A stretch of 64,000 nucleotides of DNA from Dehalococcoidia bacterium UBA2158 (GCA_002328185.1 DCWQ01000029.1:69951-133950); one strand, 5' to 3'; shown: positions 23,312 through 48,675, counted from the first letter of the stretch. Numbers and translations are program-made. The notes: generated by a model from the letters alone, not told the origin.

Positions 23312-23513
23312 GCTACCACCAGCCAAGTAACCAAGTGAAGTATGGCCACTGTTAACGACGCTGGCTCCGTGCTTGAGAAGATTGATGGGGCAACCGAGGC
23401 GGGGAAGAATAACATGCATTATCCTTCCTAGGAGAATCTTTGGCAGGCACTAAATCATTGGCCGTGGCCACGGGGGTGGCGCCGAATACGGTCAACTTCT
23501 GGGCCGCCTCTAC

Positions 23514-24587: not shown

Positions 24588-24627
24588 TGGGAGCCTTTCG
24601 TGTCACGGTCATACGAACTCTCGTCGA

Positions 24628-25113: not shown

Positions 25114-25246
25114 ATAGTTGTTGTGTGGAAGGGAATGCCGCACATCCTGGCTGGCTGACGGGGCAACGTCAAAGACGGCGTAGCTGCGTCCGCAGTGTAG
25201 AATGCTGGCAAATATTCTTCCCGCATGGGGAGAACGAGGTGTTTCG

Positions 25247-26488: not shown

Positions 26489-27753
26489 GCAGTCTCTCCC
26501 GGCGGCGCGATGGGACGCCGGATCAAGGGCGAGAAAAATACCGCCGGAACGAGAAGGATTAATCCCAGAGACACGCTCATGGCCACGGCTGCTTGGGCGC
26601 TGAAGAAGTTGGCGACTACTCCCACGGCAAGCCCGCCCACGGCAGCAACTCCTATGCATTGGCCCAGCATGCCTAGGGCGGTCCCACGCATCTCCGGCTC
26701 CGCTGAGATCATGATTATTGTGCTCTGCATGGTGCTGTAACCCGCCGCTCCCAACCCAGCCAACATCAGCATCAGGAAGGACACCGGGTACCAAGGCGAC
26801 AGGGCGAAGAACAACAGGCTTAGCAGTTGCAGACTCAAGCCCAAAGCGAATATGCGCCCGTGGTAACGCACCGCAGCCAGTGACGCAATCACCGTAGCTG
26901 CCGCTAGTGAACCGATGGCCTGGGCCGAGATCAGTATCCCGGTCAGTCCGGCGCCAACTCCCAGGTGGTTCTTGGCCACCACGGGGAACAGCGATTCCAC
27001 GCTGAAGGCCATGGCGTTCATGATCAACGTGATTATTAGCACGCTCCGGATGACATTGTTGTTCACTGAGTATTTGAAGCCTTGGGACACCGTGCTCCAG
27101 AAGGCGTATGGAACCGGTACGCGGATTGGGCCCCGTCCTTTCATCACTAAGATGAGGACGAAAGAGACGGTATAGACGGCCATCAAGACAACGTAGGTGC
27201 CGGAGAAGCCGGTTAACTCGATCAAGAGCCCGGCCATGAACGGCCCGATGAACTTCCCCAGAGTCATGTTGATGGTTTCCAGGGACATGGCGCTGACGAT
27301 GCGTTCGCTGCCCACCAGGTCATAGATCAGCGAACGGCGTGAAGGGAACTCCAGCACGAACAGCCATCCCAGGAAGAAAGAGGCAATGAAGACGTGCCAG
27401 GGCTCGACGGTATCAGCAAGAACCAGCGCCAACAAAGCTGCGGTTGCGGCTACGGCCACGATGCGGGCAGCCATTATGATGGCCCAACGGTTAGCCCTAT
27501 CGGCGATCATGCCCGAGATCAAAGCAAAGGCCAGCATTGGTATCCACCGAAAGACAAAGAGCAGGGCTACCTGGAAAGCGGAGTCGGTGAGGTCCAACAC
27601 GAGCAGGCCCATGACCACCGAGTCCATCCAGCGCCCAGTATTATCCAAGCCGCCGGCGGCCCACATGAGCCGGAAGTCTCTCAGTTGGAGGAGGCCTTTG
27701 ACCCGTTCTGCCCAGGGCCGGTTTGTTTGGGGGGTCGATTGAATATCAGCCAT
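26485..27753 (-). CDS. MFS transporter (paralog of 13500..14807)
   Basis: 422 aa with multiple TM segments and a GMIADRANR loop. It converges on the CoA-transferase gene with a 4-nt overlap. Confidence 0.85.
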   Translation of the reverse strand: MADIQSTPQTNRPWAERVKGLLQLRDFRLMWAAGGLDNTGRWMDSVVMGLLVLDLTDSAFQVALLFVFRWIPMLAFALISGMIADRANRWAIIMAARIVAVAATAALLALVLADTVEPWHVFIASFFLGWLFVLEFPSRRSLIYDLVGSERIVSAMSLETINMTLGKFIGPFMAGLLIELTGFSGTYVVLMAVYTVSFVLILVMKGRGPIRVPVPYAFWSTVSQGFKYSVNNNVIRSVLIITLIMNAMAFSVESLFPVVAKNHLGVGAGLTGILISAQAIGSLAAATVIASLAAVRYHGRIFALGLSLQLLSLLFFALSPWYPVSFLMLMLAGLGAAGYSTMQSTIIMISAEPEMRGTALGMLGQCIGVAAVGGLAVGVVANFFSAQAAVAMSVSLGLILLVPAVFFSPLIRRPIAPPGETA

Positions 27754-27885
27754 CGTCTAGATGGCCTCGGTGTATCGCGTCGTTTGATTCGATCGTGGAA
27801 CTCAAAAGCATCCGGGACCCGGCGGATCTTTGCGGGCCCCAGAGTTGGTTTCTTCAGAATGGTAAAAGTTACTCGGAGCCTAGAC

Positions 27886-32932: not shown

Positions 32933-34372
32933 TTAAAAAGTTTTGGCCAGTTTAGCCCGTTCTTCGCGCCGGTCGCGCATCATGATTGGCACGATCGACC
33001 GGGCAAACCGGCCTACCAAGCCTTCCTGGAAATCCTCAACCGATACTTTGAACAGCTCTCTACTTAATCCCGAACTGCGCACAACTTCTTCAGCCACCTG
33101 CGCAGTGGTGCCTGGATTGAGGACCAGCCGGGTATCGATCTCATCGTCTTCCAGTCCATTGGCTATCAGAACCAGCATGTCTGCACTGACGAGCTTTTCG
33201 CGCACTTGGTAGAAGACGTCGCCGGCCATGGTTTCCAAGAAGAACCACTCTTCCAGGGTATCGGAGTCGGGTAGCATCGCCCCGGGTTTTGCGGTGACTG
33301 CTTCGAAATAAAAGGCTTTGATATCGGCGGTGAGGAAACGCAGCAACCGAGGCATCGGATGGGCGAAAATATCCGGGACCGTTATGTCAGCGCCCGCCGA
33401 GAAGTCCACCAATACTTGAAGCATATCGTCGATAGAATCAGGTCCCTTGCCGCTGATACCCACAGTGGTGCGGCCTCTAGAGCGCCGGCCTTCATCGAAC
33501 CATGGCCGCAGCAATTGAACTTCTGTACGCAATTGGACTTTTAACGAATCGGATTCGGTGATTGGTTCCAGAGAGGGGAAAATCACCGGGCAGGACCAGC
33601 CCTCTTCGCCAAGCGCCTCGTCTTCGATGATGTCTGGGTAGTCGAGCAAGGCGGGAGCGGCCCCTTGGTCCACCAGCGCCAAGGTCTGGCGCAACACGTC
33701 TATCTGGACGTCCGGGCGATTGGGCGGACCAAGGGGCCGGCCCAATGGGAATGGGACCCACAACGCCCTGGGTGGCTTTACTGCTTCTGAGACCGGTCTG
33801 ATCAGGCTTATCTGGACCGTCGCGATACCGGCGCCTCTTTCACTGACGGGCCGTTCGATGTATTGAGATAGTACGCCCACGGCGTAGGTGCAGTTGGGTC
33901 AAACAGGTATCAGCAGCACCAGGTTGACCTTGTCTCCAAAAAGAAATCTTGAGACCTCTGTTGCGGCCGGCTCCATACGCTGCGGCGCGGTTGATCCCAT
34001 GAACGAATAATGCCAGTCCGCGACAGACTCTATCTCCTTTGAATCGACCAAAGTCCTCAAGTGGTCGAGGGGAAAACAGACGTTCACGTCTTGCTGGTAG
34101 GCGCTACGGTCGAAGTTGGTGCTGGAGTGAGTCATCGCTAGGTCTTTGTAGTCGACGTCGCCGGGTATGACCCGGTAATCGCCTTCGTGACCGGTGAACG
34201 GCCGGTCATCGGCCCGGTGGATGGCAGCAGTGGTAATGATGGCAACCCTGGCATCGGTCAACTTGGGGGCTTCGACCCAAGGAGTTTGCTCCAAAGGCGG
34301 AACGTATCTTCCGCCTAACCGCTCCAATAGGCTCGCTTGTTCATTTGGATGAATATCTGCCCAACGGACCAT
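32933..34372 (-). CDS. GrdB/PrdB-like (glycine/sarcosine/betaine/D-proline reductase component B family) protein; candidate selenoprotein with Sec at codon 158
   Basis: Track ORFs 33899..34372 and 32933..33880 share one frame and are separated only by TGA (33899..33901) plus 6 sense codons: ...KVNLVLLIPV-TGA-PNCTYAVGVLSQYIERPVSERGAGIATVQISLIRPVSEAVKPPRALWVPFPLGRPLGPP. The N-terminal part reads RVAIITTAAIH...GDYRVIP...VCFPLDHLR. A hairpin lies 12 nt after the TGA. Confidence 0.7.
33872..33886 (-). promoter_or_regulatory. candidate bacterial SECIS core hairpin
   Basis: The mRNA reads UGA-CCCAACUGCACC-UACGCC-GUG-GGCGUA, a 6-bp GC-rich stem with a G/U-containing apical loop starting 12 nt after the UGA. 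Confidence 0.4.
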
Positions 34373-34399
34373 GATTAATATCTCTCGCCTGATTTTCGA

Positions 34400-34831
34400 T
34401 TAATGATCATGCTGAGCAAGCTCGATCAGGACTCCCCGGGCCGCTGAAGGGCTCAGAAACCCGATATCGCCGCCCATCAACCCTTTCCTCGGCACGCGGT
34501 CACGTAGGTCAATGCCGAGAGAATCAAGAGTCTTCAACTTCTCTTCGATCCCCTCTATTTCGAAGCAAACGTGGTGGAGTCCTTCACCTTTTTCCTCGAC
34601 GTGCATAGATATCGAGCTGCCTGGCCCGGACCCTTGAAGAAGCTCCAAGTTGGTGTTGCCTATCGGAACGAAGCACCCGCGAACTCCGATATCTTCTCGG
34701 ACGATTATCGGGCCCGGTATCAGCCCAAAGATACTCCGGTAGAAATCCATACTCGAGCCCAGATCGGCCACTGCGATACCGATATGGTGTACGACGTCAG
34801 TAGGAGCTGGTGGTTTTCCTGGAATAGTCAT
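34400..34831 (-). CDS. VOC family protein (methylmalonyl-CoA epimerase-like)
   Basis: 143 aa: VHHIGIAVADLGSSMDFYRSIFGL...GEGLHHVCFEIEGI...GVLIEL. Confidence 0.75.
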   Translation of the reverse strand: MTIPGKPPAPTDVVHHIGIAVADLGSSMDFYRSIFGLIPGPIIVREDIGVRGCFVPIGNTNLELLQGSGPGSSISMHVEEKGEGLHHVCFEIEGIEEKLKTLDSLGIDLRDRVPRKGLMGGDIGFLSPSAARGVLIELAQHDH

Positions 34832-34867
34832 TCTGAAACCTCTCGTCTAAGGGGCTATTTTTGTAGC

Positions 34868-35742
34868 TCAGAGACGGGCCTTGGCCTTCGGTAGTTCGCC
34901 CCGGAACTCTTGGAATAAACAGTTAACGTTGATGATGATCCTCTCCGGCTCCACCCAGTCGGCGAATTCGCCCAGGCGTATGGCTCGGCTAGTTTCCTCA
35001 ACGCTTGAGCCCCGGTTGAAGTGGAGCTGTGACGCTCGCCTGATCAAGCGGAGATATCTCAAGGTTTTGCTAAACACTTCCTTATCGTCACAGGTCCGTG
35101 CCCCGGCATCAAAGTGGTCACGTCCAGGTGTTTGAAGATACCGTCCGCGACCTTGATCCAATTACTGACATGACCGTCTCGCGCCAACGGAGTTAAGTAG
35201 TGGAAAGCGACGTCGCCTGAGAACAACACCTTATCCTGGGGCAAGTAAACCATGGTGTCTCCATAAGTATGGGCCGGACCCGGATGGAGCAATTCGACCA
35301 CCCGGCCGCCTAGGTGGACGTTCATTTTGTCCTGGTAGGTGATGGTTGCGGGATTCAGCTGGGTCTTGGCCCAGTCCTCTCGGTATTGGGGAAATTGTTC
35401 ATTCAGCATATTCACGTCGGCGCCCCGTGCCAGCATGGCTTCACGGCATCCCTGGTGGGAAACCACTTCCGCGGGCAGATAGAACTGGTTGCCGAATGAG
35501 TGGTCAACATGATGGTGAGTGTTGACTACGTATCTGATCGGTTTGTCGGTGACCTTGCGAATCTCTTCCAAGTACGGATCGACCATGCTGGCGACCATCA
35601 TGGCGTCGATCACCATCACACCGTCGTCTCCGACTATGAACCCGGAATTGCATATATCCCATCCGACGCCGCTATGAACGTAGGCGAAGACATTCTCCGC
35701 AATTTCCTGCAATCCAGACTTCCAAGATGGTATCGGCATCAA
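34868..35742 (-). pseudogene. MBL-fold metallo-hydrolase, split by a frameshift near 35085..35100
   Basis: 35059..35742 encodes the MBL core (VVNTHHHVDHSFGN ... MPGHGPV). The expected C-terminal helical part (..DDKEVFSKTLRYLRLIRR...GEFADWVEPERIIINV) continues in another frame as ORF 34868..35161. This could be either a sequencing error or a genuine pseudogene. Confidence 0.65.
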
Positions 35743-35798
35743 GCACCTCCGATATGACTCACCAATGTTTGCGGAGCAACGGGCAAGGTTTCAACAAG

Positions 35799-36668
35799 CT
35801 ATAGCGCTGTCAGCCCGTCGTAGGTTTCCGGACGCCGGTCACGGAAGAACTGCCACGTGGACCGAACTTCGCTGATCTCTTCCAGTTCCAGGTCCGCCAC
35901 GATCACTTCGTCTTGGTCACGGCTGCCCTGAACGAGTATCTGGCCCTTCGGGTTGCAGAAATAGCTCTTCCCGAAGAACTCCCCAATGTCCCAAGGTTGT
36001 TCGTGTCCGACCCGGTTGATAGCGCCTACAAAATACCCATTGGCAACGGCGTGGGCCGGTTGCTCCAATTCCCAGAGATATTCGGATAATCCCGCGACGG
36101 TCGCGGACGGATTGAAAACGATCTCAGCACCGTTGAGGCCCAAGGCCCTGGCGCCTTCAGGAAAGTGGCGGTCGTAACAGATGTACACCCCTATGGTTCC
36201 GACACTGGTAGCAAATACCGGATATCCGCTGTTGCCGGGCTTGAAGTAAAATTTCTCCCAGAACCCAGGGGCGAGGTGAGGAATGTGGGTCTTGCGGTAC
36301 TTGCCCAAGTAGGAGCCGTCAGCATTCAGCACGGCTGCAGTGTTATAGAAAACGCCAGTCATCGCTTCTTCGTAGACCGGGACGATCAGCGCCATGTTGT
36401 GCAATTTCGCCAGGCCCTGCATCAGGCGGACCGTCGGGCCGTCGGGCACGCGTTCCACCATCGAGTACCAACGAGGGTCTTGTTCAGCACAGAAATATGG
36501 ACCGTAAAATAGTTCTTGCAAACAGAGAACTTGTACGCCCTCGGCGGCAGCCTGCTCGATCAGCGAGACATGTTTGTCGATCATGAATTGTTTCAGTTGG
36601 TCGATCGCATGTGGCGCATCGGCGCCGACACTGGCTTGAATCAACCCTGCTCGGACAATTTTTGGCAT
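35799..36668 (-). CDS. carbon-nitrogen hydrolase (nitrilase superfamily; beta-ureidopropionase / N-carbamoyl-amide hydrolase-like)
   Basis: 289 aa: RAGLIQAS..., LCLQELF (Glu), YRKTHIP (Lys), ICYDRHFPE (Cys). Confidence 0.85.
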   Translation of the reverse strand: MPKIVRAGLIQASVGADAPHAIDQLKQFMIDKHVSLIEQAAAEGVQVLCLQELFYGPYFCAEQDPRWYSMVERVPDGPTVRLMQGLAKLHNMALIVPVYEEAMTGVFYNTAAVLNADGSYLGKYRKTHIPHLAPGFWEKFYFKPGNSGYPVFATSVGTIGVYICYDRHFPEGARALGLNGAEIVFNPSATVAGLSEYLWELEQPAHAVANGYFVGAINRVGHEQPWDIGEFFGKSYFCNPKGQILVQGSRDQDEVIVADLELEEISEVRSTWQFFRDRRPETYDGLTAL

Positions 36669-36784
36669 GCTACCTCTGTGCGAGTTAGGTTACTAGGCCG
36701 TGTTTATGGGCCAGACTGTGCGGATTTCTGGCCCATATAACAATACCGTATGCCAAATACCGAAGTGGCCTAGGTTGAATCCGT

Positions 36785-38359
36785 TTAGGCCGGAGCTACA
36801 AACTCGACGGCGCGCTCCGCCATCATGAGGACCGTAGCATGGCTGCCACCTGACCTGGTGATCTTTGGCTTCACCGACGCATCGACCACCGACAACCCAG
36901 TTACTCCCTTGACTTGGCAGTATTGATCGACAACCGCCATCGGGTCGGAGTCGGGCCCCATCTTGCAGGTCCCGGATACGTGCCTGGCCGTTCCAACAGT
37001 CTGGGCTATGTAAAGGTCCAAAGCGTCGTCATTGCCCAGAATGTCATCTGTCGGGTGGAGCCGGCGATCGCATACATCTTTGTAGGCGCCGGTCTCGAGG
37101 AAATCAGCCGCCTTCCTTATACCTTCCCGCACCCGGCGTTTGTCATTCTGGTCCTGGAGATAGCGATAATTGAAGGTGGGTTGTACAGAGGGATCATCGG
37201 ACGCAAGGTTGACGTATCCCGAGCCGTCGGGTAACCCAAGGGTAATCGAGATTCTTGCCACCCGGTCTGCAGGGACTTCGTCATTCAGGAATTTGGTCCG
37301 CAGACCGGGGACGCGCTCTGGCCGCTCGTCGACCATCGGCGTGGTCCTCATCAACATGTCGTTGACTTCGCTGGACCCGTCGGATGTGTAGTGCAGGCCA
37401 AAGTGGACCCCATCGACGTCGCCAAAGAGGGACAACCCGTCTTTGACCTTGAAGGTAACCTGGGCGCTCAGATGGTTCATCAAGTTCTGTCCGACTCCGG
37501 GAAGGTCCTGAATGACCGGAATACCGAATTGCTCAAGCTGGTCCGCGGGGCCAATCCCCGACAGCATCAGCAGTTGAGGCGATTTGATAGCCCCGGCACT
37601 CAACACAACACGTTCGGCTTCAATGGTGAAGATCTCGCCGCCGCTTTCTACTTCCACGCCAACGGCCCTCTTGTTTTCAATCAACACCTTCCTGGCCAAT
37701 ACCCCTCCCCTCACCGTCAGGTTAAGACGGTGACGCATGGGGTTTAAGTGGGTGATCGCGGCGCTCATCCGCCAGCCGTCCAGGTTGTTCGACGGCCACA
37801 CGCCTACGCCCGCGGGATTTGGGCCGTTGGTATCCTCAACCGCCCCGTAACCCTCATCCAAACAGGCTGCGTGGAACGCCTTTTGTATGTCTGGCGTTGG
37901 TCCGGTCTGGCGACGCCTTACCGGTATCGGACCGTCGGTCCCATGAAAATCGTCCCGGATGTCTAGGTCGTGTTCGGATTTCCTGAAGAACGGCAAGACT
38001 TTGTCATAAGACCATTGGTCGTTGCCCATGGCAGCCCATGAATCGAAATCCTCAGGCAAACCTCTCTGCATAGCCGCGCCATTGATGGACGACCCTCCCC
38101 CAATCACCTTTCCCTGGGCTACGTGTATCTCCCCTTGCTCCTCGGTGGCCGTTCCCTGCAGGGCCCAGTTGTGTTCCGAATCCGGGGATTCGGCATAACC
38201 TGTGGTCGCGTATTTGATCTCGTCGGGAAGGATGTCTGTATTCGGGTAGTCCGTCCCGGCTTCCAGCAATAAGATAGAGGTATTCGCGTTCTCGGCCAAT
38301 CTACCGGCCAACACTGACCCGGCGGCGCCACCTCCGACAATCACAACATCGTATTTCAT
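36785..38359 (-). CDS. GMC family oxidoreductase (choline dehydrogenase-like)
   Basis: 524 aa: MKYDVVIVGGGAAGSVLAGRLAE, GKVIGGGSSINGA, and a C-terminal HATVLMMAERA-type segment. Confidence 0.9.
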   Translation of the reverse strand: MKYDVVIVGGGAAGSVLAGRLAENANTSILLLEAGTDYPNTDILPDEIKYATTGYAESPDSEHNWALQGTATEEQGEIHVAQGKVIGGGSSINGAAMQRGLPEDFDSWAAMGNDQWSYDKVLPFFRKSEHDLDIRDDFHGTDGPIPVRRRQTGPTPDIQKAFHAACLDEGYGAVEDTNGPNPAGVGVWPSNNLDGWRMSAAITHLNPMRHRLNLTVRGGVLARKVLIENKRAVGVEVESGGEIFTIEAERVVLSAGAIKSPQLLMLSGIGPADQLEQFGIPVIQDLPGVGQNLMNHLSAQVTFKVKDGLSLFGDVDGVHFGLHYTSDGSSEVNDMLMRTTPMVDERPERVPGLRTKFLNDEVPADRVARISITLGLPDGSGYVNLASDDPSVQPTFNYRYLQDQNDKRRVREGIRKAADFLETGAYKDVCDRRLHPTDDILGNDDALDLYIAQTVGTARHVSGTCKMGPDSDPMAVVDQYCQVKGVTGLSVVDASVKPKITRSGGSHATVLMMAERAVEFVAPA

Positions 38360-38510: not shown

Positions 38511-38921
38511 CTATTTGGACCCCGGTTCCTTCTCTACGACGTGGAGGTACATGAAAGCGCCGCTCAGAAGAGTGGCGTCTTCGCAGTGGCCGCCGATCAT
38601 TTCACCTGAAGGCCGGGCGGCGGCAATGTGAATGTGCACCCGAAGGGCGCCTTCCGGCAAGGGTTGGATGTACCCTTCCGCACTAACTACCTCCAGGGTT
38701 TCGTTCAACACGTGCCGTTGGAATTCAGGCGAGCCTTCTTCCCAGCTACAAAGGTTTCGCAGCTTCAGTTCACTCAAACTCCCGATGCAGGACGTTACGA
38801 TAGCTTCTCTGATGCCCTCTGCCTGCGCCAGTGATTCGAGGGTGCTGACCAAGGACTCCCCAGCTAGAAATTTTCTGTACAGGATGCCTGAGGCTTTCGT
38901 TTCCCATTCTTGAATTGCCAT
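38511..38921 (-). CDS. PPC (DUF296) domain protein
   Basis: 136 aa: ...SCIGSLSELKLRN...HIHIAAARPSGEMIGGHC..., typical of PPC/DUF296. Confidence 0.6.
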   Translation of the reverse strand: MAIQEWETKASGILYRKFLAGESLVSTLESLAQAEGIREAIVTSCIGSLSELKLRNLCSWEEGSPEFQRHVLNETLEVVSAEGYIQPLPEGALRVHIHIAAARPSGEMIGGHCEDATLLSGAFMYLHVVEKEPGSK

Positions 38922-39064: not shown

Positions 39065-40162
39065 ATGGTGGCGAACTCTATCCCACTGGCAAAACAGGTT
39101 ATCCAGGGCCGGCCGGTAGCTGTTCCTCTCGGTAATGAGCAGGAGAGTAGATTTCAGCGTCTGGTCGAAGAGACGACCATGATCGACCTCCATGAGCACC
39201 CGATGGTGAAGCCGGAAGATCCCAGCCGACTCTTGGAGTACCTGCGCGGCGACGTCCACGAGTGGGGCTACGAGGCGATACGCCACGGAGGGTTTACAGC
39301 GGTTGGGACGGCCAATGTCTTTCGGGGCATGGTGAACACCGACGAGATGTCCTTCATTCGGTTCGAAGACCTTTTGGACGAGATCGGCATGATGCTCTCA
39401 GATGTCGGCCGTCATGGCGGGGTTGTCAAAGTCGGCAACGCTGACGAGATCGAAGCGGCAAAGCGGCAAGACCAGGTGGGTATCTTGCCAACGGTGGAGC
39501 ACTTGGCCATCGGCAGCGAGTTGCAGCGTCTGGACGTGCTCTACAGCGCCGGCGTCAGGCTGGCAGGGCTCACCTACCGACGTAAGAACTATATCGGGGA
39601 CGGCCACCTGGAGCGCAACGACGGCGGGCTGAGCCTGTTCGGAATCGAGGTCATTAAGAGGATGAACGATCTGGGTATGGTGGTCGACTTGTCCCACGCG
39701 TCTTTCAAGACGGCCATGGACGCCATAGAGTGCTCCCAGACGCCCGTGTGCTTCAGCCACGACGGGTCATACACTCTCGGCCAGCAACAGGGTGGCGGAG
39801 AGTATGCTTCGGGACGCCTGAGGAGAGACGAGGAGTTGGTCGCCTGCGCGCAAAAAGGCGGAATCATCGGGGTCACCGTCGCGCCGTCGGTGATCAGTAG
39901 CTGGGGATCCACTCTGAGCATCGATCGTTTGCTGGATCACTACGATTACATGGTGAACTTGCTGGGCATCGACCACGTAGCCATCGGCACAGATTCCAGC
40001 ATAGGGGAGAGAAGCTCGGGCTTTGTCACCGGCGTCGAATCCATCGCAGAAGCGAAGAACATCATTCGCGGGCTAATCACCCGGGGTTACTCCGATGCCG
40101 ACATCATAAAGATCACCGGCGGCAACGCACTGGTATTCTTTCGCAGGGTCATGGGCGGGTAG
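39065..40162 (+). CDS. membrane dipeptidase family (peptidase M19) protein
   Basis: Track ORF 38915..40162. Start placed at ATG 39065 (AAGGAG upstream). Motifs: IDLHEHP, VVDLSHAS, CFSHDG, IGTDS. Confidence 0.8.
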   Translation: MVANSIPLAKQVIQGRPVAVPLGNEQESRFQRLVEETTMIDLHEHPMVKPEDPSRLLEYLRGDVHEWGYEAIRHGGFTAVGTANVFRGMVNTDEMSFIRFEDLLDEIGMMLSDVGRHGGVVKVGNADEIEAAKRQDQVGILPTVEHLAIGSELQRLDVLYSAGVRLAGLTYRRKNYIGDGHLERNDGGLSLFGIEVIKRMNDLGMVVDLSHASFKTAMDAIECSQTPVCFSHDGSYTLGQQQGGGEYASGRLRRDEELVACAQKGGIIGVTVAPSVISSWGSTLSIDRLLDHYDYMVNLLGIDHVAIGTDSSIGERSSGFVTGVESIAEAKNIIRGLITRGYSDADIIKITGGNALVFFRRVMGG

Positions 40163-41372
40163 CCTGGTTCTTTGCCCGTTAAAAGCTCACCGAGCTCTTC
40201 TCTTTATGAACCTAGCCCAAATCGCTAGGTGTGAATTTTCCTGATATGTGCGTTTGTGAGGTGTTGCACTTTGATAACACGGGCCAGACCTCTCAACTGA
40301 GGAGTCAGTACATCCATGCACGTGGGACGGCTCAACAGATTTCAGTATAACCCTTAATCAAACATACCAAACCTATCAGGCATCACCATCGACCGTATTA
40401 TTCCTCGCTCATTGAAATACCCAACTTTGAAACGGAGATTCTGATATGGCTGAACAAAATATCGATTGGCAATCGGTTTCACGGTCGCTAAAGCAACCAG
40501 CAGCCAGTTGGATAACGCTCGAGAAACCGAGATTAGCCTGATGATTACCCAATCCGGAATCAATCTAGTATTGATGTCTCCAGATGCCGGCGCTACGCGG
40601 ATACGATGCCCTGGAAGTTTCTGATCCAGGCTATCTTGAATCAAACTCCCCGCTTGTGCGGAGATCTCTACATTCAGTTTCACCAGGGGTTCAAACAGGC
40701 TTTGGATGAACTTGGATTTCATCTGATGACAGGCCGGAGCCGTGACGGCAGGCGGATGATTAGTCGGCTTCGGGACTATCCGACGATAACTTCACAATCA
40801 TTGAGAGTTCCTGGCCAAGCATCAGCGTGCCAACCCTGCTTAAGACGAGGTAATCATGCATTTGCGAACATTGAGATATGGGAACGCCTTTTCCGAGCGG
40901 AGGCGGAAACCGATAATGATGCTCTCTTTCGAGAGCATATAAAAAGGCTGGATTTGCCCCACAAACCCGAGTTGCTGATAGATGGCACGATCTTGGTGAT
41001 GCGAGCTTGTGAAGCCTATTGGACATTGGACCAAAGAGATCTATAGGAATTCGGCCGCTTTCTGGATATGCAGTGGTACGATCCCCCCGACACGACCGAA
41101 ACCCGCCCCGTGTATACGCTTAATATCTTTGAGTTTGTATTGGTACGGGTCATTTAGGTGGTTGTGGCCGCGGTATTAACTGGGATGCGCAGGCGAAACA
41201 GGAAGCACCCAGACAAACTTAAAGGGCCATCGGTCTGACTAGTTGGTGGCCCTTTGTCAAAGCTTCAACCGTTTTGATTGTAACCGCCACTATTAACCTG
41301 ATATCGGTGGTTTTACGTTAAGCCTATGATGATCTAACACGGTTTTCCTGTTGCTAATTAGAGCACAAATTT

Positions 41373-42965
41373 ATGATCAAGAATGTTCTCCCTTGGGCGA
41401 TCTCAGGTATAGCCTTGGTTTGTTGCGTTGCGACAATCTATTCTTTAATGGCCTATCGTGATGTTGTGAATAAGATAGTCGCATCAGAAGAATCTTCTGA
41501 TCTAGAAGATTATGGTCAGGCTATAACAATACTCGAATCGGCAATGACTAGTTCGATCGTTAAATTCTTTGGAGTAAAACGGAAGACTCTTGAAGACCTG
41601 TCGACCGCTGCCGCTACTCGAGAGGTAGACAAAAGACATTTTGAGGATGGGCTAAATGCCGGTTCCGATGACTTATTAGACGGCATCAATAAACTCTCTG
41701 AAATCGCCAGAGATTCTCGCTATTTTGACCAGTCCCAGATCAAGATAGGCGAGTTTCGATTACAACTTTTGGAATTGGAACTAGATTCGGCTGACGAGAA
41801 AACAAAAAAAGCAGAAGAAGAGATTAAGCTACTATTAATTTCGAACAAGGCGCTAGAAACAACTTTAAATCAAGAGACTGAATCGAAACTTGCAGCAGAA
41901 AGCGCAGCTAGCATGGCGAACCAACGGGCAGACGATGAAGCCACCGCTAAGAGGTCCGCCCAACAGCAAGCCGCTGATCAAGAGCTGCTCGCTCAAGAAG
42001 AGGCAGCAGGCAAGAAGTTAGCCCAACAACAAGCCGCTGATCAGGAACAGATCGCTCAAGAAGAAGGTGCAGCCAAGAGGGTAGCCCAGCAGGAAGCCGC
42101 AGAACAGGCTGCCTTTGCCAAACAGATAGAAAAAGACCGAATCCTGCTTCTAGCGGATACCCATCCTATGATCCAAGCGGTCGTTTCTGGTGAACTAAAA
42201 TTTTATTTCGAACCATTGCCGTGGTATGCAGCTCCAGAAGTATCTTCAGGAGTTGAAGAAATTGCCCAATCATTATCAGAGTGGAATCCATATAACGCGA
42301 CCATGAGAAGAGTTTATTCCACCTCCAATGCTGATCTAGTAATTACTTGGGTCAAAGATTACGGCACCCATGTGCTCGGCGAAGCTATATATAAATCTCA
42401 CATTAAGGTCGGTTTGGGAACCGAAAATTGCATAGGCGATTGGATGGCATTTGATTCGAATACCTTGAAAAAAGTGCTATGGCATGAGATAGGGCATACT
42501 ATGGGCTATTCCCACAGTTCCAATCCAACTAATGTGATGTACCACAATACCGCGACCCATTTTTTTGTAGAACAGGACATCTCCGAAGCTATAGCTTCTG
42601 GTTGGTATATGACATTCCCCCTTTGCGGATCAGGTCAATATTTTTATTCGTTCGAATCAGAGAATTCATACGAGGGTTTTGACATATATGTACTTCCGCC
42701 TGGAACGGATGGGGCAACGGTCAATTCTGGTGGTCTTGTTTACACGGATTGCGGATCGACAGGAATTGCCTCCTATAGCAACTCGTGCAACGTGAGCTTT
42801 GGGGCATCTATATACATTTCACCAACTCATTATTACAACGGAGTAACCATCACTGGAAAAGTAATCACTCCAGATGAATCTGTCTGGCCTGATATGGAAT
42901 GGGATGCGTCGGTTTTTGAATACGAAGCATCAGACTTGCTCTACTACCGTGATTTCTTTCGATAA
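41373..42965 (+). CDS. membrane-anchored zinc metalloprotease (metzincin, matrixin-like) with a coiled-coil stalk
   Basis: 530 aa. N-terminal TM segment PWAISGIALVCCVATIYSLMAY, a Q/A/E-rich repeat region, HEIGHTMGYSH (HExxHxxGxxH) followed by NVMY (Met-turn candidate), and a Cys-containing C-terminal domain. Low GC. Confidence 0.75.
   Translation: MIKNVLPWAISGIALVCCVATIYSLMAYRDVVNKIVASEESSDLEDYGQAITILESAMTSSIVKFFGVKRKTLEDLSTAAATREVDKRHFEDGLNAGSDDLLDGINKLSEIARDSRYFDQSQIKIGEFRLQLLELELDSADEKTKKAEEEIKLLLISNKALETTLNQETESKLAAESAASMANQRADDEATAKRSAQQQAADQELLAQEEAAGKKLAQQQAADQEQIAQEEGAAKRVAQQEAAEQAAFAKQIEKDRILLLADTHPMIQAVVSGELKFYFEPLPWYAAPEVSSGVEEIAQSLSEWNPYNATMRRVYSTSNADLVITWVKDYGTHVLGEAIYKSHIKVGLGTENCIGDWMAFDSNTLKKVLWHEIGHTMGYSHSSNPTNVMYHNTATHFFVEQDISEAIASGWYMTFPLCGSGQYFYSFESENSYEGFDIYVLPPGTDGATVNSGGLVYTDCGSTGIASYSNSCNVSFGASIYISPTHYYNGVTITGKVITPDESVWPDMEWDASVFEYEASDLLYYRDFFR
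41958..42113 (+). repeat. 63-bp tandem repeat (about 2.5 copies) inside the metzincin gene
   Basis: Copies at 41958..42020 and 42021..42083, plus a partial copy to about 42113. They encode AQQQAADQE(L/Q)(L/I)AQEE(A/G)A(G/A)K(K/R)(L/V). Confidence 0.85.
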
Positions 42966-43284
42966 GGCCTGTATCGCCTCAGGGAATCGGTATATCAGAG
43001 ATTCCCACTGGCATGCGAAATCTGATCTGCATCAACATTACTTTAGTGCAGTTGCACCGCAACAATGCCATCGACCATTGAGAGAGCGCGCGCGATTGAA
43101 ATGGCGAACAATCAGGGGCAATCCTATATTAGTCACGAACTTGGGAGATGTTTAATTTCGAGCATATCGGCCGAGGGAGTAGGCTCCGCAATCGTCGCCG
43201 TACAATCCAACGCCATCAGCAGGACGATGGACAGGAAGACATGCACGATAAATGTTAGTGATAGGGTCGATAGGCAGCGCATGG

Positions 43285-43446
43285 TTAGTTAGAGCCAGGA
43301 TAACTGTCTGGAGGCCGTTCCGGCATCCCTTCGTAACGATCGCCACTACCCCAATCCGCGTTTAAGAATAATAATACAAATACCGCTACAATTACGATGA
43401 GGGAGATGGCGCTTCCTACGCCCCCAATCACTCTCTTTCGGCCCAT
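43285..43446 (-). CDS. possible 53-aa single-TM peptide
   Basis: Hand-found ORF below the track cutoff: MGRKRVIGGVGSAISLIVIVAVFVLLFLNADWGSGDRYEGMPERPPDSYPGSN*. No clear RBS. Confidence 0.2.
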   Translation of the reverse strand: MGRKRVIGGVGSAISLIVIVAVFVLLFLNADWGSGDRYEGMPERPPDSYPGSN

Positions 43447-43778
43447 AAGAGTCAACGTTTGGGGTTAGTTCTGGTGCCGCTCTCCGCTGTATGTTCCACG
43501 CGTGGCCACAGCTGAATAGCCCCACGCATTGAGCAACGCATTAGAGCGGTTACTGGTGCCGCAGGTGCCGCAGCAAGTGGCGGAGATGATACTTCGCCTC
43601 TCGCTATCTGCGCGTCCCGATATGCCGGCATTTATATTCCAAAGTTCCAGGCTACGTCCGGCGTTGCCGAAGAAGAAGCCGACGGCCCAAGGTTAAGGCA
43701 GCTAGGTATTAGACATCATCTCCACCCATGATTAATATAATCTCCGACCGGAACCCTATTTCGAGTTTGGAGGCAGAC

Positions 43779-44069
43779 ATGGCCGCATACGTGATTGGCG
43801 CTATCCAAAGTGTAAACGACCCAACGGCTTTTTCAGAGTATCAAAATTTGGCCTTACCCACCTTGGCGAAATACTGTGGAACCGTCGTAATCGGGAGCAC
43901 TAAAATCGAAGTGGCCGATGGGAATTGGTCGCCTACCGGCATGGTCGTGGTCGAGTTTGAAACCATGGCGAAAGCAAAGGAATGGTACAACTCTCCTGAC
44001 TACAACCCGCTGGTATTGCGTCGAACTGCCTCAGCCGACAGTGGGGTTATATTTGTAGACGGAGATTAA
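43779..44069 (+). CDS. DUF1330 domain protein
   Basis: Track ORF 43728..44069. Start placed at ATG 43779 after GGAGG. Sequence: MAAYVIGAIQSVNDPTAFSEYQ...VVVEFETMAKAKEWYNSPDY. Confidence 0.75.
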   Translation: MAAYVIGAIQSVNDPTAFSEYQNLALPTLAKYCGTVVIGSTKIEVADGNWSPTGMVVVEFETMAKAKEWYNSPDYNPLVLRRTASADSGVIFVDGD

Positions 44070-44330
44070 ACAATCGTAGTTTAACTATTGGCTGCTCCTA
44101 ACCATTATGATTCGGGTTCTCATTTATTATCCGAAGCCTGTTGAACGGAATTTCGCATCCGAGGTATGGCGTACTTTAACCCCGCCACCTATGCCTTCCT
44201 CAAAGCTGAAGCCAGCTGCTTTGGAATGGTCCTGGTCTGGCTGAGTCCTCCACTACCCCACTAGTACCCCCACCCGGTATGGGACTCGCCGGGGATGTCT
44301 CTAATAGATGATTGGAGTGCCTAACATGCA

Positions 44331-45746
44331 TCATTGCAACACCCCCGGCAATCTCTCCCCGAACAGTGACGCCGTCTCGAAAGCGTTGGCTAGTTGAAGT
44401 ACACCGAAGTCATCGTGGTGACGTCCAACGATCTGCAAGCCCACTGGGAGTCCCTCAGGAGTAAACCCGCACGGCACGGATGCCGCTGGCAGACCAAGCG
44501 AACTGATGTAGTAGCATGACTTCATCCAGTCAATGTATGTCTCCATCTGCACGCCGTTGATTTCGGTCGGATACTCGATTGTCACGTCGAACGGCGGAAC
44601 CTGATTCACCGGCATAACCATAAACTCATAATTCTCCATGAAGGCACAAACCCGGTTAAAATATGTGGATCGCATCTCCTCCGCCCTACCAACAATGCTT
44701 GCTGTTAGTTTTAAACCGGCCTCAATTTCGATGATCACTGTGTCCTTGATCAAGTTGCGGTGCTCTTTTAGTAATTCTGCCCTGAGAGACGCTGCTCTCC
44801 ACGCTCGCAGTGTCTTGAACACCTCGTCTGCGTTGCTGAAATCCGGAGCGGCCTGGTCGACTACACAGCCAAGCGATTCCAACACGCCTGCGGTGGTCTC
44901 AATTATCGAGGCGACTCTCGCATCTATCGGAAGACCGTTGAGGTCGGGTACGTATGCGATTCTCACTCCCGTGAAGTCTCTTCCGAGGGGGGCAGCAAAA
45001 GTTGCCCCGGGCTGGTCTATGGATATCGGGGAGCGATTGTCTGGCCCCGCTATGACGCTTAGAAAGAGAGCAACGTCCCCCACTGTACGTGCCATTGGAC
45101 CCTGAACGCTGAGCGTATCCCACTCCAATGGCGAAACAGCCGGCACCCGTCCCGGGGACGGGCGAAATCCGACCACGTTGTTGAAGTTAGCTGGATTTCG
45201 CAATGACCCTCCGAGGTCGGTTCCATCAGCGAATGGCAACATTCTACAGGCGAGCGAGACTCCCGCACCACCGCTGCTTCCGCCGCATGTCTTTGATGTG
45301 TCGTACGGGTTAAGTGTTGCGCCGAATACGGTGTTAAATGTCTGAGAACCGGCACCGAACTCCGGGGTATTCGTTTTGCCAATGATTATGGCGCCGGCTT
45401 TCTTGGTTCGCTCGACAATTATCGCATCCTGATTGGGAACGTTGTCCTTAAATATGGGAGATCCGAACGTAGTACGCATACCCTTGGTTGAAGTGAGGTC
45501 CTTCACCGCGGTGGGAAGTCCGTGAAGTGGCCCAATATATTCGCCTTTAGCAATCGCTGCGTCCGCCGCTTTGGCACTGTCCATCGCCCGGGCCGAGTGA
45601 AGAGTGATGATCGCGTTGACGGTTGAGTTGACACGCTCGATCTGCATCAAGTGCGCATCCATGACCTCGACTGCTGACAGTTCGCGATTGTGAATCTTGT
45701 CTCTCATTTCTCTGGCGGTCAGATAACAGATTTCGTTGCACGGCAT
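44331..45746 (-). CDS. amidase (amidase-signature family), third paralog
   Basis: Track ORF 44331..45863. Start placed at ATG 45746 (AAAGGA upstream). Motifs: CGGSSGGAGVSLA and AVKD..TKGMRTTFGS. Confidence 0.88.
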   Translation of the reverse strand: MPCNEICYLTAREMRDKIHNRELSAVEVMDAHLMQIERVNSTVNAIITLHSARAMDSAKAADAAIAKGEYIGPLHGLPTAVKDLTSTKGMRTTFGSPIFKDNVPNQDAIIVERTKKAGAIIIGKTNTPEFGAGSQTFNTVFGATLNPYDTSKTCGGSSGGAGVSLACRMLPFADGTDLGGSLRNPANFNNVVGFRPSPGRVPAVSPLEWDTLSVQGPMARTVGDVALFLSVIAGPDNRSPISIDQPGATFAAPLGRDFTGVRIAYVPDLNGLPIDARVASIIETTAGVLESLGCVVDQAAPDFSNADEVFKTLRAWRAASLRAELLKEHRNLIKDTVIIEIEAGLKLTASIVGRAEEMRSTYFNRVCAFMENYEFMVMPVNQVPPFDVTIEYPTEINGVQMETYIDWMKSCYYISSLGLPAASVPCGFTPEGLPVGLQIVGRHHDDFGVLQLANAFETASLFGERLPGVLQ

Positions 45747-46223
45747 TTGATTATCCTTTGACCAAGTTTGGGTGAATTCGGCGGTCGAGCCGGGAAACCC
45801 TTCACGACTCCTGTTAACAGATAAACGGTGGCGATGATGAGTGCGTGCACGAAGCAGTATCATCGGTCATTCCGATTTGGCTCGAGCCGGCGAGGTGCAT
45901 GACCTAGATATCTTCGTTCCAGCTTCGAACGGAGATTAACCTGTCATTCTCGGGCCTCCGATACCCATACCCATACCCATAAAATATGCTGCCACAGTGC
46001 CTTCCCGATGGGGTGTCAATGGAATAAGAGAAGCCTCGTAGAAAACAATCAGAGGGGGCTTCTAACGTAGGACTTAACCATTGATTGACGGAGTACGGAG
46101 CATAACAATTTTCGAGTGCGTTGCCATGCCTAATGTGAAATGGTGCCACTTGTTGCTAGTTGGTGAAACGTCTGGTCACATTTGGGCCCTATTTTAGACC
46201 CAAAATTTACGTCTAATAATTGA

Positions 46224-46574
46224 CTAGGTTTTATCTCCCGCTCGGGCGACTCTCCATTCATAAAACTTGCCGTCTCTCTTTCTTTCAACACACCGTACTC
46301 TGCTACAGCTAGCATTGCCTCGCATGTCAACAGTATCTGCACCGTGGTAACAAACCGGTATATCATCGTTCTCGTAGATAAATTCAATAGGTTCCGATAT
46401 GCTGGTCGGGCTACCACCAGCGGCTACCCAGTCCAAAAAAACCTGCCTGTTAGAAAAACTCCGCAAGGGTGTAGTCCACTTGAAATCTTCAGTCGGGAAC
46501 TCTCCGAGTCGGCCGGAATCTTTATTGGCAAATACTTCTCGGGTTGCTTTGGTAAATTCCGTACCTAAAGACAT
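46224..46574 (-). CDS. hypothetical protein, possibly NTF2/SnoaL-like
   Basis: 116 aa; GAGGG RBS 7 nt upstream. The fold assignment is a weak impression only. Confidence 0.4.
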   Translation of the reverse strand: MSLGTEFTKATREVFANKDSGRLGEFPTEDFKWTTPLRSFSNRQVFLDWVAAGGSPTSISEPIEFIYENDDIPVCYHGADTVDMRGNASCSRVRCVERKRDGKFYEWRVARAGDKT

Positions 46575-46611
46575 TAGTATCCCTCTGATTTAACAAATTA
46601 GACCGCAAATT

Positions 46612-46905
46612 TTACGGCATTCCGTTTAGAATGCCAGGAATCTCCGCTTCCGTGAACGCCCTCATAGCAGTAGCACGGAGATTGCCTATGCCTGCTTGCG
46701 CAAGTGCCATCCTCGCCGCTGTTTCATCATCAGGGAATTCATAAACAACCACGGCGTCCTGTGAGCCCAACGTCAGGTGATAATTAAGTAATTTGCCACC
46801 ATTGCCTTCAAATGCCTGACGGCCAGCCGCTATTCGAGCTGGAAGGTCTTTGATTGTTTTGTTGCCTTGTTCTGTGAAGCTGAGAAAAGAGATGTAAGTT
46901 GTCAC
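46612..46905 (-). CDS. GYD domain protein
   Basis: 97 aa: MTTYISFLSFTEQGNKTIKD...GGKLLNYHLTLGSQDAVVVYEFPDDETAA. Confidence 0.75.
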   Translation of the reverse strand: MTTYISFLSFTEQGNKTIKDLPARIAAGRQAFEGNGGKLLNYHLTLGSQDAVVVYEFPDDETAARMALAQAGIGNLRATAMRAFTEAEIPGILNGMP

Positions 46906-47022
46906 AGGGTTCCTCCAAACCGAAAATAGATTGGAGGATACTAACGGATAGAAGCCTAATCGTCGAATGTGTAAAATAGAGATGGCAGACGGAGGGCATC
47001 AATGGAAGGATGAGGAGGCGAT

Positions 47023-48675
47023 ATGACCAGTGAACAGACCCTGGATGGCACCGAACTGGATGTGGTAATCGTCGGCGCAGGGGTAAGCGGCTTATATGCC
47101 CTCTATCATCTACGCGGGCTCGGCTATCGGGTTCGAGTCTACGAGCAGGGTGGGGATGTCGGCGGCACCTGGTACTGGAATCGCTATCCTGGTTGTCGAT
47201 GCGATGTCGAAAGCCTTGAGTACTCATTTTCCTTCGACGAGAAACTAGAGCAAGAATGGCAATGGCCTGAACGGTACGGCACCCAGCCTGAGATCCTACG
47301 TTACGTCAACCATGTGGCTGATCGGCATAACTTGCGCAAAGACATCGTCTTCAACTGTCCGATCACGTCTGCAACGTTCAACGAGGACGCAAACCAGTGG
47401 GTGCTATCGACGGGGGGCGGACAACGTATAACTAGCCGGTTCTGCATCATGGCCACGGGCAACCTGTCAACACCGCGAGTTCCTGAATACGAGGGCTTAG
47501 ACGCCTTCCAAGGCAAGTGGTATCACACCGGGCAGTGGCCCCATGACGGTGTCGATTTCACTGGCCTGCGCGTTGGCGTTATCGGAACCGGCTCCTCCGG
47601 CGTGCAGTCCATCCCGATTATCGCCCGACAAGCAAGCCATCTCCATGTATTCCAGCGGACCCCACAATTCTCCCTGCCGGCCCGCAACGGCCCAATGGAT
47701 AGCGAGAAAGAAGCTGCGCACAAGGTCAACTACCGGGCCCTCCGTGAGGCTGCCTTCGATACGCCTTTCGGCATAGCTGGTTATCCGCCACCAACACGGT
47801 CGGCACTAGAAGTGCCGCACGACGAGCGACAGGCCTCCTACGAAGAAAAGTGGGCCGAAGGGGGCAGTATCAGCTTTCTGTACACCTATAAGGACCTCCT
47901 CCTTAACAAGGAGGCGAATGATACCGCGGCCGATTTCGTGCGCGATAAAATTCGGCAAACCGTCAAGGATCCGAAAGTAGCGGAAAAGCTTATCCCCTAC
48001 GACCACCCGATTGGAACCAAGCGCCTGATACTCGACAGCGGATACTTCGAGACCTACAACCGAGACAACGTCACTCTGGTCGACATTCGCGAAGCCCCAA
48101 TCGAGCGATTCACCCCGCAGGGATTACGGACAGCCGATGGGAACGATTACGAAATGGACGCGGTAGTTTTCGCAACCGGCTTCGATGCAATGACCGGGGC
48201 GCTGCGCAATATCGAACTGGACAACGGAGCAGGACTTACCATCCAGGACAAATGGTCGAATGGACCGCGTTGCTTCATGGGGCTGGCGATGGCCGGCTTC
48301 CCAAATCTATTCATGATCACCGGACCCCAGAGCCCATCGGTAAAGACTCAGATGATCCTGGGTGGCGAGCAGCATACTGAGTGGATCGCCGAATTCCTGG
48401 AGTATATGCGACTCAACGGCTTTACCCGGTTCAATGTTGAACAGCAAGCTGAGGATGCCTGGGTGCTGCACAACAATGACATCGCGGACTCGACGCTTTA
48501 TCCACTCGCAAACTCTTGGTATGTCGGTGCAAACGTTCCGGGCAAACCCCGCGTGTTCATGCCATACGTTGGGGGCTTCGACCACTACAAGAAAGCCTGC
48601 GACGAATTAGCTCAGAACGGTTATCCAGGCCTACAATTAAGTAGCCAAGGCCAAACATTAGATGCAGCTGATTGA
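47023..48675 (+). CDS. Baeyer-Villiger monooxygenase (type I, cyclohexanone/phenylacetone monooxygenase-like)
   Basis: 550 aa: VVIVGAGVSGL, GGTWYWNRYPGCRCD, FQGKWYHTGQWP (BVMO fingerprint FxGxxxHxxxWP), VGVIGTGSSG. Confidence 0.92.
   Translation: MTSEQTLDGTELDVVIVGAGVSGLYALYHLRGLGYRVRVYEQGGDVGGTWYWNRYPGCRCDVESLEYSFSFDEKLEQEWQWPERYGTQPEILRYVNHVADRHNLRKDIVFNCPITSATFNEDANQWVLSTGGGQRITSRFCIMATGNLSTPRVPEYEGLDAFQGKWYHTGQWPHDGVDFTGLRVGVIGTGSSGVQSIPIIARQASHLHVFQRTPQFSLPARNGPMDSEKEAAHKVNYRALREAAFDTPFGIAGYPPPTRSALEVPHDERQASYEEKWAEGGSISFLYTYKDLLLNKEANDTAADFVRDKIRQTVKDPKVAEKLIPYDHPIGTKRLILDSGYFETYNRDNVTLVDIREAPIERFTPQGLRTADGNDYEMDAVVFATGFDAMTGALRNIELDNGAGLTIQDKWSNGPRCFMGLAMAGFPNLFMITGPQSPSVKTQMILGGEQHTEWIAEFLEYMRLNGFTRFNVEQQAEDAWVLHNNDIADSTLYPLANSWYVGANVPGKPRVFMPYVGGFDHYKKACDELAQNGYPGLQLSSQGQTLDAAD

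Follow-up and report, generated by a model that had tools for sequence, protein, structure and literature searches.

The 64,000-nucleotide stretch of the Dehalococcoidia bacterium UBA2158 genome analysed here (GCA_002328185.1, DCWQ01000029.1:69951-133950; hereafter the window, in whose own numbering its positions are given) carries on its minus strand a gene that runs through a single in-frame TGA and closes a row of five same-strand genes. From the sequence alone, this gene had been read as a non-canonical, stand-alone GrdB-like selenoprotein gene attached to a catabolic cluster, a reading to which we refer as the original prediction. Our analysis leads us to favour, with moderate confidence, the view that the product is a selenoprotein of a large, uncharacterised and stand-alone branch of the GrdB/PrdB superfamily, which would work as a self-contained selenocysteine/cysteine (Sec/Cys) reductase. 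The parts of this statement do not carry equal weight. Namely, we are highly confident of the identity and the stand-alone nature of the PrdB-like selenoprotein, while the chances of a substrate-specific reductase mechanism, argued by analogy, appear to us about even.

Results

Evidence for selenocysteine

Sequence comparison identifies the gene (Table 1) as encoding a genuine selenoprotein, in which UGA-158 is predicted to be decoded as Sec with the aid of a hairpin downstream, because the TGA is conserved, homologues with Cys exist, the hairpin covaries and the genome holds selA, selB, selD and tRNA-Sec. Read through, the gene comprises 479 codons and a TAA stop and gives a protein of 479 amino acids (aa), with Sec-158 in the context L-L-I-P-V-U-P-N-C-T. 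A six-frame search of 61 related genomes returned about 90 homologous places, nearly all of them with one in-frame TGA and the remainder partial pieces, and the TGA stands, singly, at the position of codon 158 in all 24 homologues that were extracted. A collection in which each prokaryotic species is represented by a single genome gave 80 best loci from several phyla; among these, the site pattern picked up a TGA 69 times and a Cys codon never, missing the site in the remaining loci. The database homologues are mostly calls of about 315 or 245 aa that begin just past the TGA, or of about 155 aa that end there; a minority are continuous proteins of 369-436 aa with Cys in the Sec column, and the Cys homologues P0113-P0121 read V-C-P-N-C or T-C-P-H-C at this place.

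The hairpin, which resembles a selenocysteine insertion sequence (SECIS), varies among relatives in a way that preserves its pairing. In particular, pair 16-30 is CG in 11, UG in 5, AU in 4 and UA in 4 of the 24 relatives and is unpaired in none, and pair 19-27 is GC in 18, AU in 5 and GU in 1. Over 69 sequences from several phyla, 90.1% of the cells are paired, whereas sliding the partners along the sequence leaves no more than 56% paired; both sides change in five of the seven pairs, pair 16-30 occurs as six standard pair types, and the covariation score was reached by 0 of 500 shuffles. Part of this conservation is due to the coding constraint on an x-A-V-G-x peptide. That said, the compensatory changes (e.g., CGCACC/GGTGCG and GGTACC/GGTACC) exceed what coding constraint imposes.

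As for the machinery, the host genome contains a tRNA-Sec (found with ARAGORN), selB (353.5 bits, cut-off 242), selA (562.6 bits) and selD (378.9 bits), the last two likewise above their curated cut-offs. The selD gene (G000 contig C28:234948-235868, minus strand) itself carries one in-frame TGA, and the host SelD is probably a selenoprotein as well.

Domain architecture and family membership

The best NCBIfam match of the protein is PrdB (TIGR04483, E 2.4e-27), whose model positions 12-219 of 238 cover residues 24-235. The score of 95.9 bits is far under the 300-bit equivalog cut-off, and the protein has 479 aa where PrdB has about 240. Among the other NCBIfam models of the superfamily, GrdH, GrdF and GrdB score between 29 and 51 bits, with 51 for GrdH and 39 for GrdF (cut-offs 775 and 800) and 38 for the GrdB model TIGR01918 (cut-off 65.45); Pfam GRDB (PF07355) matches residues 82-154 with 21.3 against a cut-off of 22. 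Since the Pfam and TIGR01918 scores stay under the curated cut-offs, the protein is classified here as a distant branch of the GrdB/PrdB superfamily. When the family profile is aligned with the canonical GrdB of the host by hhalign, the two match with 97.3% probability over GrdB residues 221-386, and U158 falls on U347. The protein is without the N-terminal ~220 aa of GrdB, whose full-length architecture spans about 430 aa. Lacking this N-terminal half, it corresponds to PrdB, and 'PrdB-like' is therefore the better name.

An extra C-terminal region, which the original prediction had pointed out, is indeed present: only residues 24-235 align to PrdB, and they are followed by a conserved all-helical domain and a tail that is confined to what we call the long-form clade (Table 1). 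In an alignment of 26 sequences, H82, S84, D88, D95, N97, Y122, G126, P156, U/C158, C161, E173, P200, R202, F208, G211, G215 and Q223 are invariant in the PrdB-like part, and a second conserved region, reaching to about residue 398, contains the invariant P262, E284, R301, G305, D350, E357, A358 and T381. The AlphaFold2 (AF2) model of the full-length protein has a mean predicted local distance difference test (pLDDT) value of 75, dropping to about 42-52 for tail residues 400-460. It places Sec-158 in the alpha/beta domain between strand 151-155 and helix 159-173, with Cys-161 three residues further on and the all-helical domain next. When the C-terminal part, the structure of which it had been suggested to predict and compare, is folded alone, it reaches a pLDDT of 84.8 and a predicted template-modelling score of 0.82 as an all-helical domain, and Foldseek finds no fold match for it in the PDB (best E 0.62). 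Nor does the full model have a usable Foldseek match there (best E 0.05, TM below 0.25). Searching PDB sequences with the single sequence gave no match, and the family profile matched only glutaredoxin C-P-x-C motifs, at a non-significant E of about 1.

One candidate for a pyruvoyl function within the protein itself was considered and rejected. Namely, the motif W-S-C-P-V around Cys-261 could have marked a hidden pyruvoyl precursor, as in GrdE or PrdA, but only Pro-262 is invariant there. Position 261 varies, as the short-form paralogues have Gly, Val, Ser or Met and one Cys-form homologue has Ser. Separately, one long-form homologue (G021:C1:2284420-2285819; L059, L098) is matched in two different frames by overlapping parts of the query (1-147 and 144-471); a frameshift or a fault in the assembly is the probable cause.

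Occurrence of Prd and Grd partners

The pyruvoyl proprotein PrdA was absent from all 37 genomes searched, i.e., the host and 36 relatives, where TIGR04480 scored at most 25 bits against a cut-off of 700. Among the 61 relatives, the 11 genomes that have GrdA are precisely those that have GrdE. Of the 13 congeneric genomes with a long-form homologue, only 2 have the two proteins and 11 lack them, and they occur in none of the eight genomes with the closest orthologues, at least 71% identical. Most of the gene-bearing genomes have neither a pyruvoyl subunit of the PrdA/GrdE type nor GrdA. That so few long-form congeners possess GrdA and GrdE supports the conclusion that the gene does not depend on them. 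Within the window, tblastn searches with the host genome's own GrdA, GrdB, GrdC and GrdE (E <= 0.01) found no match, in keeping with the original prediction, which had noted the lack of GrdA, GrdC and GrdE there; its view of a non-canonical, stand-alone GrdB-type module is upheld by the superfamily membership, the extra domain and the distribution just described.

In this sense, the protein both resembles and departs from the known systems. With PrdB, the 26-kDa subunit of D-proline reductase of Clostridium sticklandii and C. difficile, it has in common the U-x-x-C pair and the size of the domain, and it differs by some 245 additional C-terminal residues (helical domain and tail) and by the missing PrdA. 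Its hosts belong to aerobic marine heterotroph lineages, unlike the Stickland fermenters. With GrdB, GrdF and GrdH of the glycine, sarcosine and betaine reductases it is homologous over the stretch given above, but it has no adjacent partner of the GrdE type and does not co-vary with GrdA and GrdE. Finally, it is like the C-P-x-C centres of thioredoxins and glutaredoxins in that U-P-N-C follows a beta-strand at the N-terminus of a helix, whereas the overall fold is different.

Taxonomic range

An exhaustive search of representative sequences yielded 1780 clusters at E <= 0.001 and 90 at E <= 1e-30, and canonical GrdB and PrdB proteins may be among the weaker matches; more than 590 genomic loci of the family were found. 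Close relatives occur in SAR202, the group to which the host genome belongs, and in other Dehalococcoidia, in Acidimicrobiales, in Desulfobacterales and other Thermodesulfobacteriota, in Azotimanducaceae (HTCC2089), Pseudomonadales and Burkholderiales, in SAR116 and other Alphaproteobacteria, and in Sumerlaeota. The host has three copies, namely the window gene, a 67%-identical long-form paralogue on contig C21 and a 35%-identical short form on contig C7, and some SAR202 genomes have three to five diverged paralogues. Five loci of about 13 kb (L142, L154, L156, L162 and L166), four from Dehalococcoidia or Chloroflexota and one alphaproteobacterial, hold two separate TGA-containing copies each, which points to local duplication.

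A family by the name of 'proline reductase PrdB, UxxC, pfam07355' appears among the most abundant selenoprotein families in two marine surveys (PMC1088965; PMC2398784), with 42 sequences from the Sargasso Sea and 235 Sec and 110 Cys forms from the Global Ocean Sampling data. We infer that this is the present family from the shared motif, the Pfam assignment and the marine clades: both have U-x-x-C, and the present family is found in SAR202, SAR116 and Azotimanducaceae. The portions of the surveys that deal with it (PMC1088965; PMC2398784) call the family proline reductase and make no mention of the helical domain, the missing PrdA or the gene context. Literature searches on 'PrdB-like', 'GrdB-like' and SAR202 selenoproteins returned nothing specific on its architecture or its role in SAR202.

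The family was known before only as a name in marine surveys, and what is new is its architecture and its independence from the Prd and Grd partners. Since 2005, 'PrdB' has figured in surveys as one of the selenoprotein families most abundant in the surface ocean (PMC1088965; PMC2398784). Of the surveyed organisms with the orphan branch, none was found to have a D-proline reductase partner. This branch is now defined by a PrdB-like domain joined to a helical domain that has no structural match, and it appears genetically independent of PrdA, GrdE and GrdA, with three to five paralogues in some SAR202 genomes. What is more, its compact SECIS hairpin, kept across phyla, could be used to re-annotate many split gene calls, and the function of marine PrdB-like proteins is now directly testable on a defined protein.

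Discussion

Possible mechanism

According to what is reported of PrdB and GrdB from the work of Kabisch, Andreesen and colleagues, the selenolate is said to attack the alpha-carbon of a substrate held on the pyruvoyl group of the partner, and a Cys reportedly resolves the resulting selenoether to a selenenylsulfide, which is afterwards reduced. By analogy, the window protein alone may act as a Sec/Cys reductase on a small substrate: the selenolate of Sec-158 would attack an electrophilic centre of the substrate, Cys-161 would resolve the adduct to a selenenylsulfide, and a general thiol system such as thioredoxin would reduce the latter again. Working without a partner, the protein would require either that its substrate be intrinsically electrophilic or that the helical domain provide binding and activation.

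Several points weigh against this interpretation. First, the characterised PrdB and GrdB require a partner subunit that activates the substrate. Second, the searches of the PDB by sequence and by Foldseek turned up no PrdB or GrdB structure with which the model could be compared. Third, the U-P-x-C motif could equally fit a plain thiol-disulfide oxidoreductase. Finally, in one relative (G040, C1:1977854-1985350, L094) a short-form homologue lies directly upstream of grdC-grdA-grdE-grdB on the same strand, and because of this arrangement a link to the Grd system may exist for part of the family. Nowhere else was a member of the orphan family found to adjoin a canonical grd cluster; in the other Grd-positive relatives with listed match positions, the homologue lies away from grd.

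The alternative that fares best, and which we hold to be unlikely yet far from negligible, is a general thiol-disulfide redox or antioxidant selenoprotein in the style of thioredoxin or glutaredoxin, with no specific small-molecule substrate. In such a protein, U-P-x-C would cycle between selenol/thiol and selenenylsulfide and reduce protein disulfides or peroxides. The position of V-U-P-N-C in the AF2 model, where a beta-strand precedes it and a helix begins with it, would suit this role, and the glutaredoxin C-P-x-C sites, non-significant as they are at E of about 1, are the only PDB sequence matches of the family profile. The lack of a conserved operon partner in any phylum sampled and the abundance of the family in oxic marine clades (SAR202, SAR116 and relatives of HTCC2089) also agree with it. 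The fold, however, is not thioredoxin-like, as Foldseek returned neither a thioredoxin nor a glutaredoxin match, and beyond the redox pair the family keeps motifs in common with GrdB, namely H82-S-S-x-N-F-D88, Y122-S-F-M-G126 and P-P-R-x-L-W-V-P-F. Since these motifs are conserved or invariant, they suggest a retained binding pocket, and the three to five diverged paralogues of SAR202 genomes fit substrate diversification better than housekeeping redox chemistry.

A bolder form of the reductase proposal, which we regard as improbable, is that of a single-polypeptide selenoenzyme, spread through the oxic ocean, which would carry out reductive cleavage of C-N, C-S or C-halogen bonds of the GrdB/PrdB type with neither a pyruvoyl partner nor GrdA. 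Here the substrate would bring its own good leaving group, as would a quaternary amine, a sulfonium or a halogenated compound, and the helical domain would replace the missing subunit; glycine betaine, if made by the neighbouring choline-dehydrogenase-like GMC enzyme, would be one example. If this were true, the SAR202 paralogues would represent a substrate-diversified set for the degradation of dissolved organic matter.

The surrounding gene cluster

The five-gene cluster spans 32933-38359 on the minus strand and consists, in the order of reading, of genes for a GMC oxidoreductase, a carbon-nitrogen (CN) hydrolase, a frameshifted metallo-beta-lactamase-fold (MBL) hydrolase, a VOC protein and the PrdB-like selenoprotein, with a PCC-domain gene upstream (Table 1). 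The families were assigned with Pfam and NCBIfam. The distances are 151 nt from PCC to GMC, 116 nt from GMC to CN-hydrolase, 56 nt from CN-hydrolase to MBL, 36 nt from MBL to VOC and 27 nt from VOC to the selenoprotein gene, so that the short gaps stressed by the original prediction are real, and so is the frameshift that it had reported: near 35089-35104, the assembly interrupts the MBL gene, a paralogue on contig C66 aligning with 35712-35089 in one frame and with 35104-34895 in another. A simple terminator scan of the window predicted no minus-strand terminator inside the cluster, and the five genes are possibly co-transcribed in the host. The GMC protein, one of 14 paralogues in a genome of 3.03 Mb, scores 403 bits with choline dehydrogenase (PRK02106, cut-off 605), the model nearest to the CN-hydrolase, that of N-carbamoylputrescine amidase, is matched under its cut-off, and the VOC protein gives 96.7 bits with the methylmalonyl-CoA epimerase model, also under its cut-off. 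As observations on the side, the GMC protein passes the NCBIfam model of the mycofactocin dehydrogenase MftG by a narrow margin (393.6 bits, cut-off 387.45), and the nearest match of the MBL protein is to the 'quinoprotein relay system zinc metallohydrolase' models (TIGR04559, 133.8 bits, under the cut-off).

Table 1. Coordinates of the PrdB-like selenoprotein gene, its parts and its neighbours in the window
Feature	Position	Strand	Remarks
PrdB-like selenoprotein gene	32933..34372	-	Open reading frames (ORFs) 33899..34372 and 32933..33880 joined by one TGA
UGA codon 158, predicted selenocysteine, motif V-U-P-N-C	33899..33901	-	Cys homologues; conserved TGA; aligns with U347 of the genome's GrdB
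SECIS-like hairpin UACGCC-GUG-GGCGUA	33872..33886	-	Begins 12 nt past the UGA (+13 to +27); 6-7 bp; covariation
PrdB-like alpha/beta catalytic domain, residues 24-235	33668..34303	-	NCBIfam, hhalign; AF2 blockwise pLDDT mostly 80-97
All-helical C-terminal domain, residues ~262-398	33179..33589	-	Kept in long, short and Cys forms; no Pfam match
C-terminal tail of ~80 aa, residues 399-479	32936..33178	-	Long-form clade only (26-sequence alignment)
VOC/glyoxalase-fold gene	34400..34831	-	Glyoxalase_4 4.9e-16
MBL-fold hydrolase gene	34868..35742 (35059..35742 + 34868..35161)	-	Two frames
CN-hydrolase gene	35799..36668	-	CN_hydrolase 1.5e-60
GMC oxidoreductase gene	36785..38359	-	GMC_oxred_N 4.4e-45, GMC_oxred_C 4.1e-31
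PCC-domain gene (PF03479)	38511..38921	-	Upstream of the GMC gene; the PCC and GMC pair also adjoins the orthologue in G017

According to the original prediction, this arrangement might be a dedicated catabolic operon, in which the GMC enzyme, followed by the CN-hydrolase, MBL and VOC proteins, would supply the GrdB-like reductase with an amine- or osmolyte-derived compound. The single strand, the gaps of 27-116 nt and the missing internal terminator speak for it. A survey of neighbourhoods for co-occurrence, which had been proposed, took in all ORFs within a maximum of about 9 kb to either side of 20 homologues and of the host's two paralogues (22 loci in all), and of the cluster's genes only GMC proved to recur. 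At 7 of 15 long-form loci, the window included, a GMC gene is no more than about 5 kb from the homologue; given the number of paralogues and the size of the genome, chance alone would place one within +/-9 kb at about 8% of loci, with the reservation that the loci counted are related by descent. An orthologous GMC gene (87% identity) adjoins the orthologue in G017, G011 and G004, a paralogue of 47-49% identity lies near the clade-B copy in the host, G009 and G012, and one further GMC-linked locus is found in a Chloroflexi metagenome-assembled genome (MAG). Even so, the order and orientation of GMC differ among genomes, it being downstream on the same strand, convergent, or three genes and 3 kb away. 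A joint duplication of the GMC and PrdB-like genes was considered and rejected: the GMC protein adjacent to the C21 copy is 47% identical to that of the window, no nearer than most of the other 13 paralogues, and the closest GMC paralogues (72% on C40 and 61% on C70) are on contigs without a PrdB-like homologue.

The CN-hydrolase, MBL and VOC genes, in turn, are beside the homologue in none of the 22 related loci, all of the SAR202 order, and a functional tie to them, as originally envisaged, finds no support there. CN-hydrolase orthologues with 74-79% identity do exist in G004, G009, G010 and G011, on contigs other than that of the selenoprotein gene, and a further one is present in G044. The VOC orthologue of G011 (80%) lies 2.6 kb from the CN-hydrolase orthologue there, on a contig other than that of the PrdB-like gene. 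In other phyla, the neighbours are unrelated (e.g., a TonB receptor, TauD, a DedA-like protein and FKBP), and no CN-hydrolase or MBL domain was seen in the neighbourhoods sampled. Clustering the ORFs of the 80 loci from many phyla revealed no universal partner and only lineage-specific synteny, such as sucC/sucD-like genes in one group of Dehalococcoidia and a helix-turn-helix protein in Desulfobacterales. The other recurrent neighbours among relatives are similarly lineage-specific, i.e., a divergent GFO/IDH/MocA oxidoreductase, and an arylsulfotransferase-like propeller with a PNPOx-like protein. Because the CN-hydrolase and VOC orthologues sit elsewhere and none is found beside the 22 loci, gene order across these genomes marks the window cluster as separate modules brought side by side in this lineage rather than as a conserved pathway. 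With its MBL gene frameshifted in addition, the dedicated operon appears quite improbable, and the local five-gene cluster is a poor guide to the function of the selenoprotein.

Relation to the canonical grd cluster of the host

By the terms of the original prediction, grd homologues elsewhere in the genome that co-vary with the gene would speak against it. Such homologues are present, but they do not co-vary with it, as the two in 13 long-form congeners show. Namely, contig C43 of the host carries a canonical cluster (98808-103483) composed of grdE-grdB and divergent grdC-grdA, in which grdE is matched by PF09338 with 245.6 bits, grdB contains U347, grdC scores 670.8 bits with NF040746 and grdA contains a TGA; no grdD was seen adjoining it. 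One may ask whether the window protein is a substrate-specific 'protein B' that feeds this GrdA/GrdC machinery, a role that the presence of the C43 genes and, in G040, the short form immediately upstream of grdC-grdA-grdE-grdB would favour. We consider this very improbable, given that GrdA and GrdE are missing in 11 of 13 long-form congeners and in all eight genomes with the closest orthologues, that the other Grd-positive relatives with listed positions have the homologue away from grd, and that the protein is without the N-terminal half of GrdB. The weakest alternative, namely that there is no selenoprotein at all and that the gene is either two separate ORFs or a pseudogene broken by a stop codon, can draw on the gene callers, which split it nearly everywhere into products of about 155 and 315 aa, but it is practically eliminated by a TGA kept at one position in every homologue examined, by continuous Cys homologues, by the covarying SECIS hairpin 3' of the TGA and by the full Sec machinery of the genome.

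Further observations

The C43 GrdB reads T-S-T-U-G-T-S-T-R-S around Sec-347, and if the canonical GrdB has U-x-x-C-x-x-C at the Sec, as we take it to have, both Cys would be Ser in this protein. A 569-aa thioredoxin-like DUF255 protein is encoded just downstream of the C43 grdB. The copies of clade B are found in a block of their own, represented in the host by L008 (G000:C21, ~23400-29500) and elsewhere by L056, L058, L060 and L079, which comprises an LLM oxidoreductase, GMC, a PNPOx-like protein, an unassigned 120-aa protein and an arylsulfotransferase-like beta-propeller on the opposite strand, followed by the PrdB-like selenoprotein; several SAR202 genomes and a single Chloroflexi MAG have this block. 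Finally, the G+C content is 0.47-0.53 over positions 40001..48000 of the window, as compared with about 0.57-0.61 in the rest of it.

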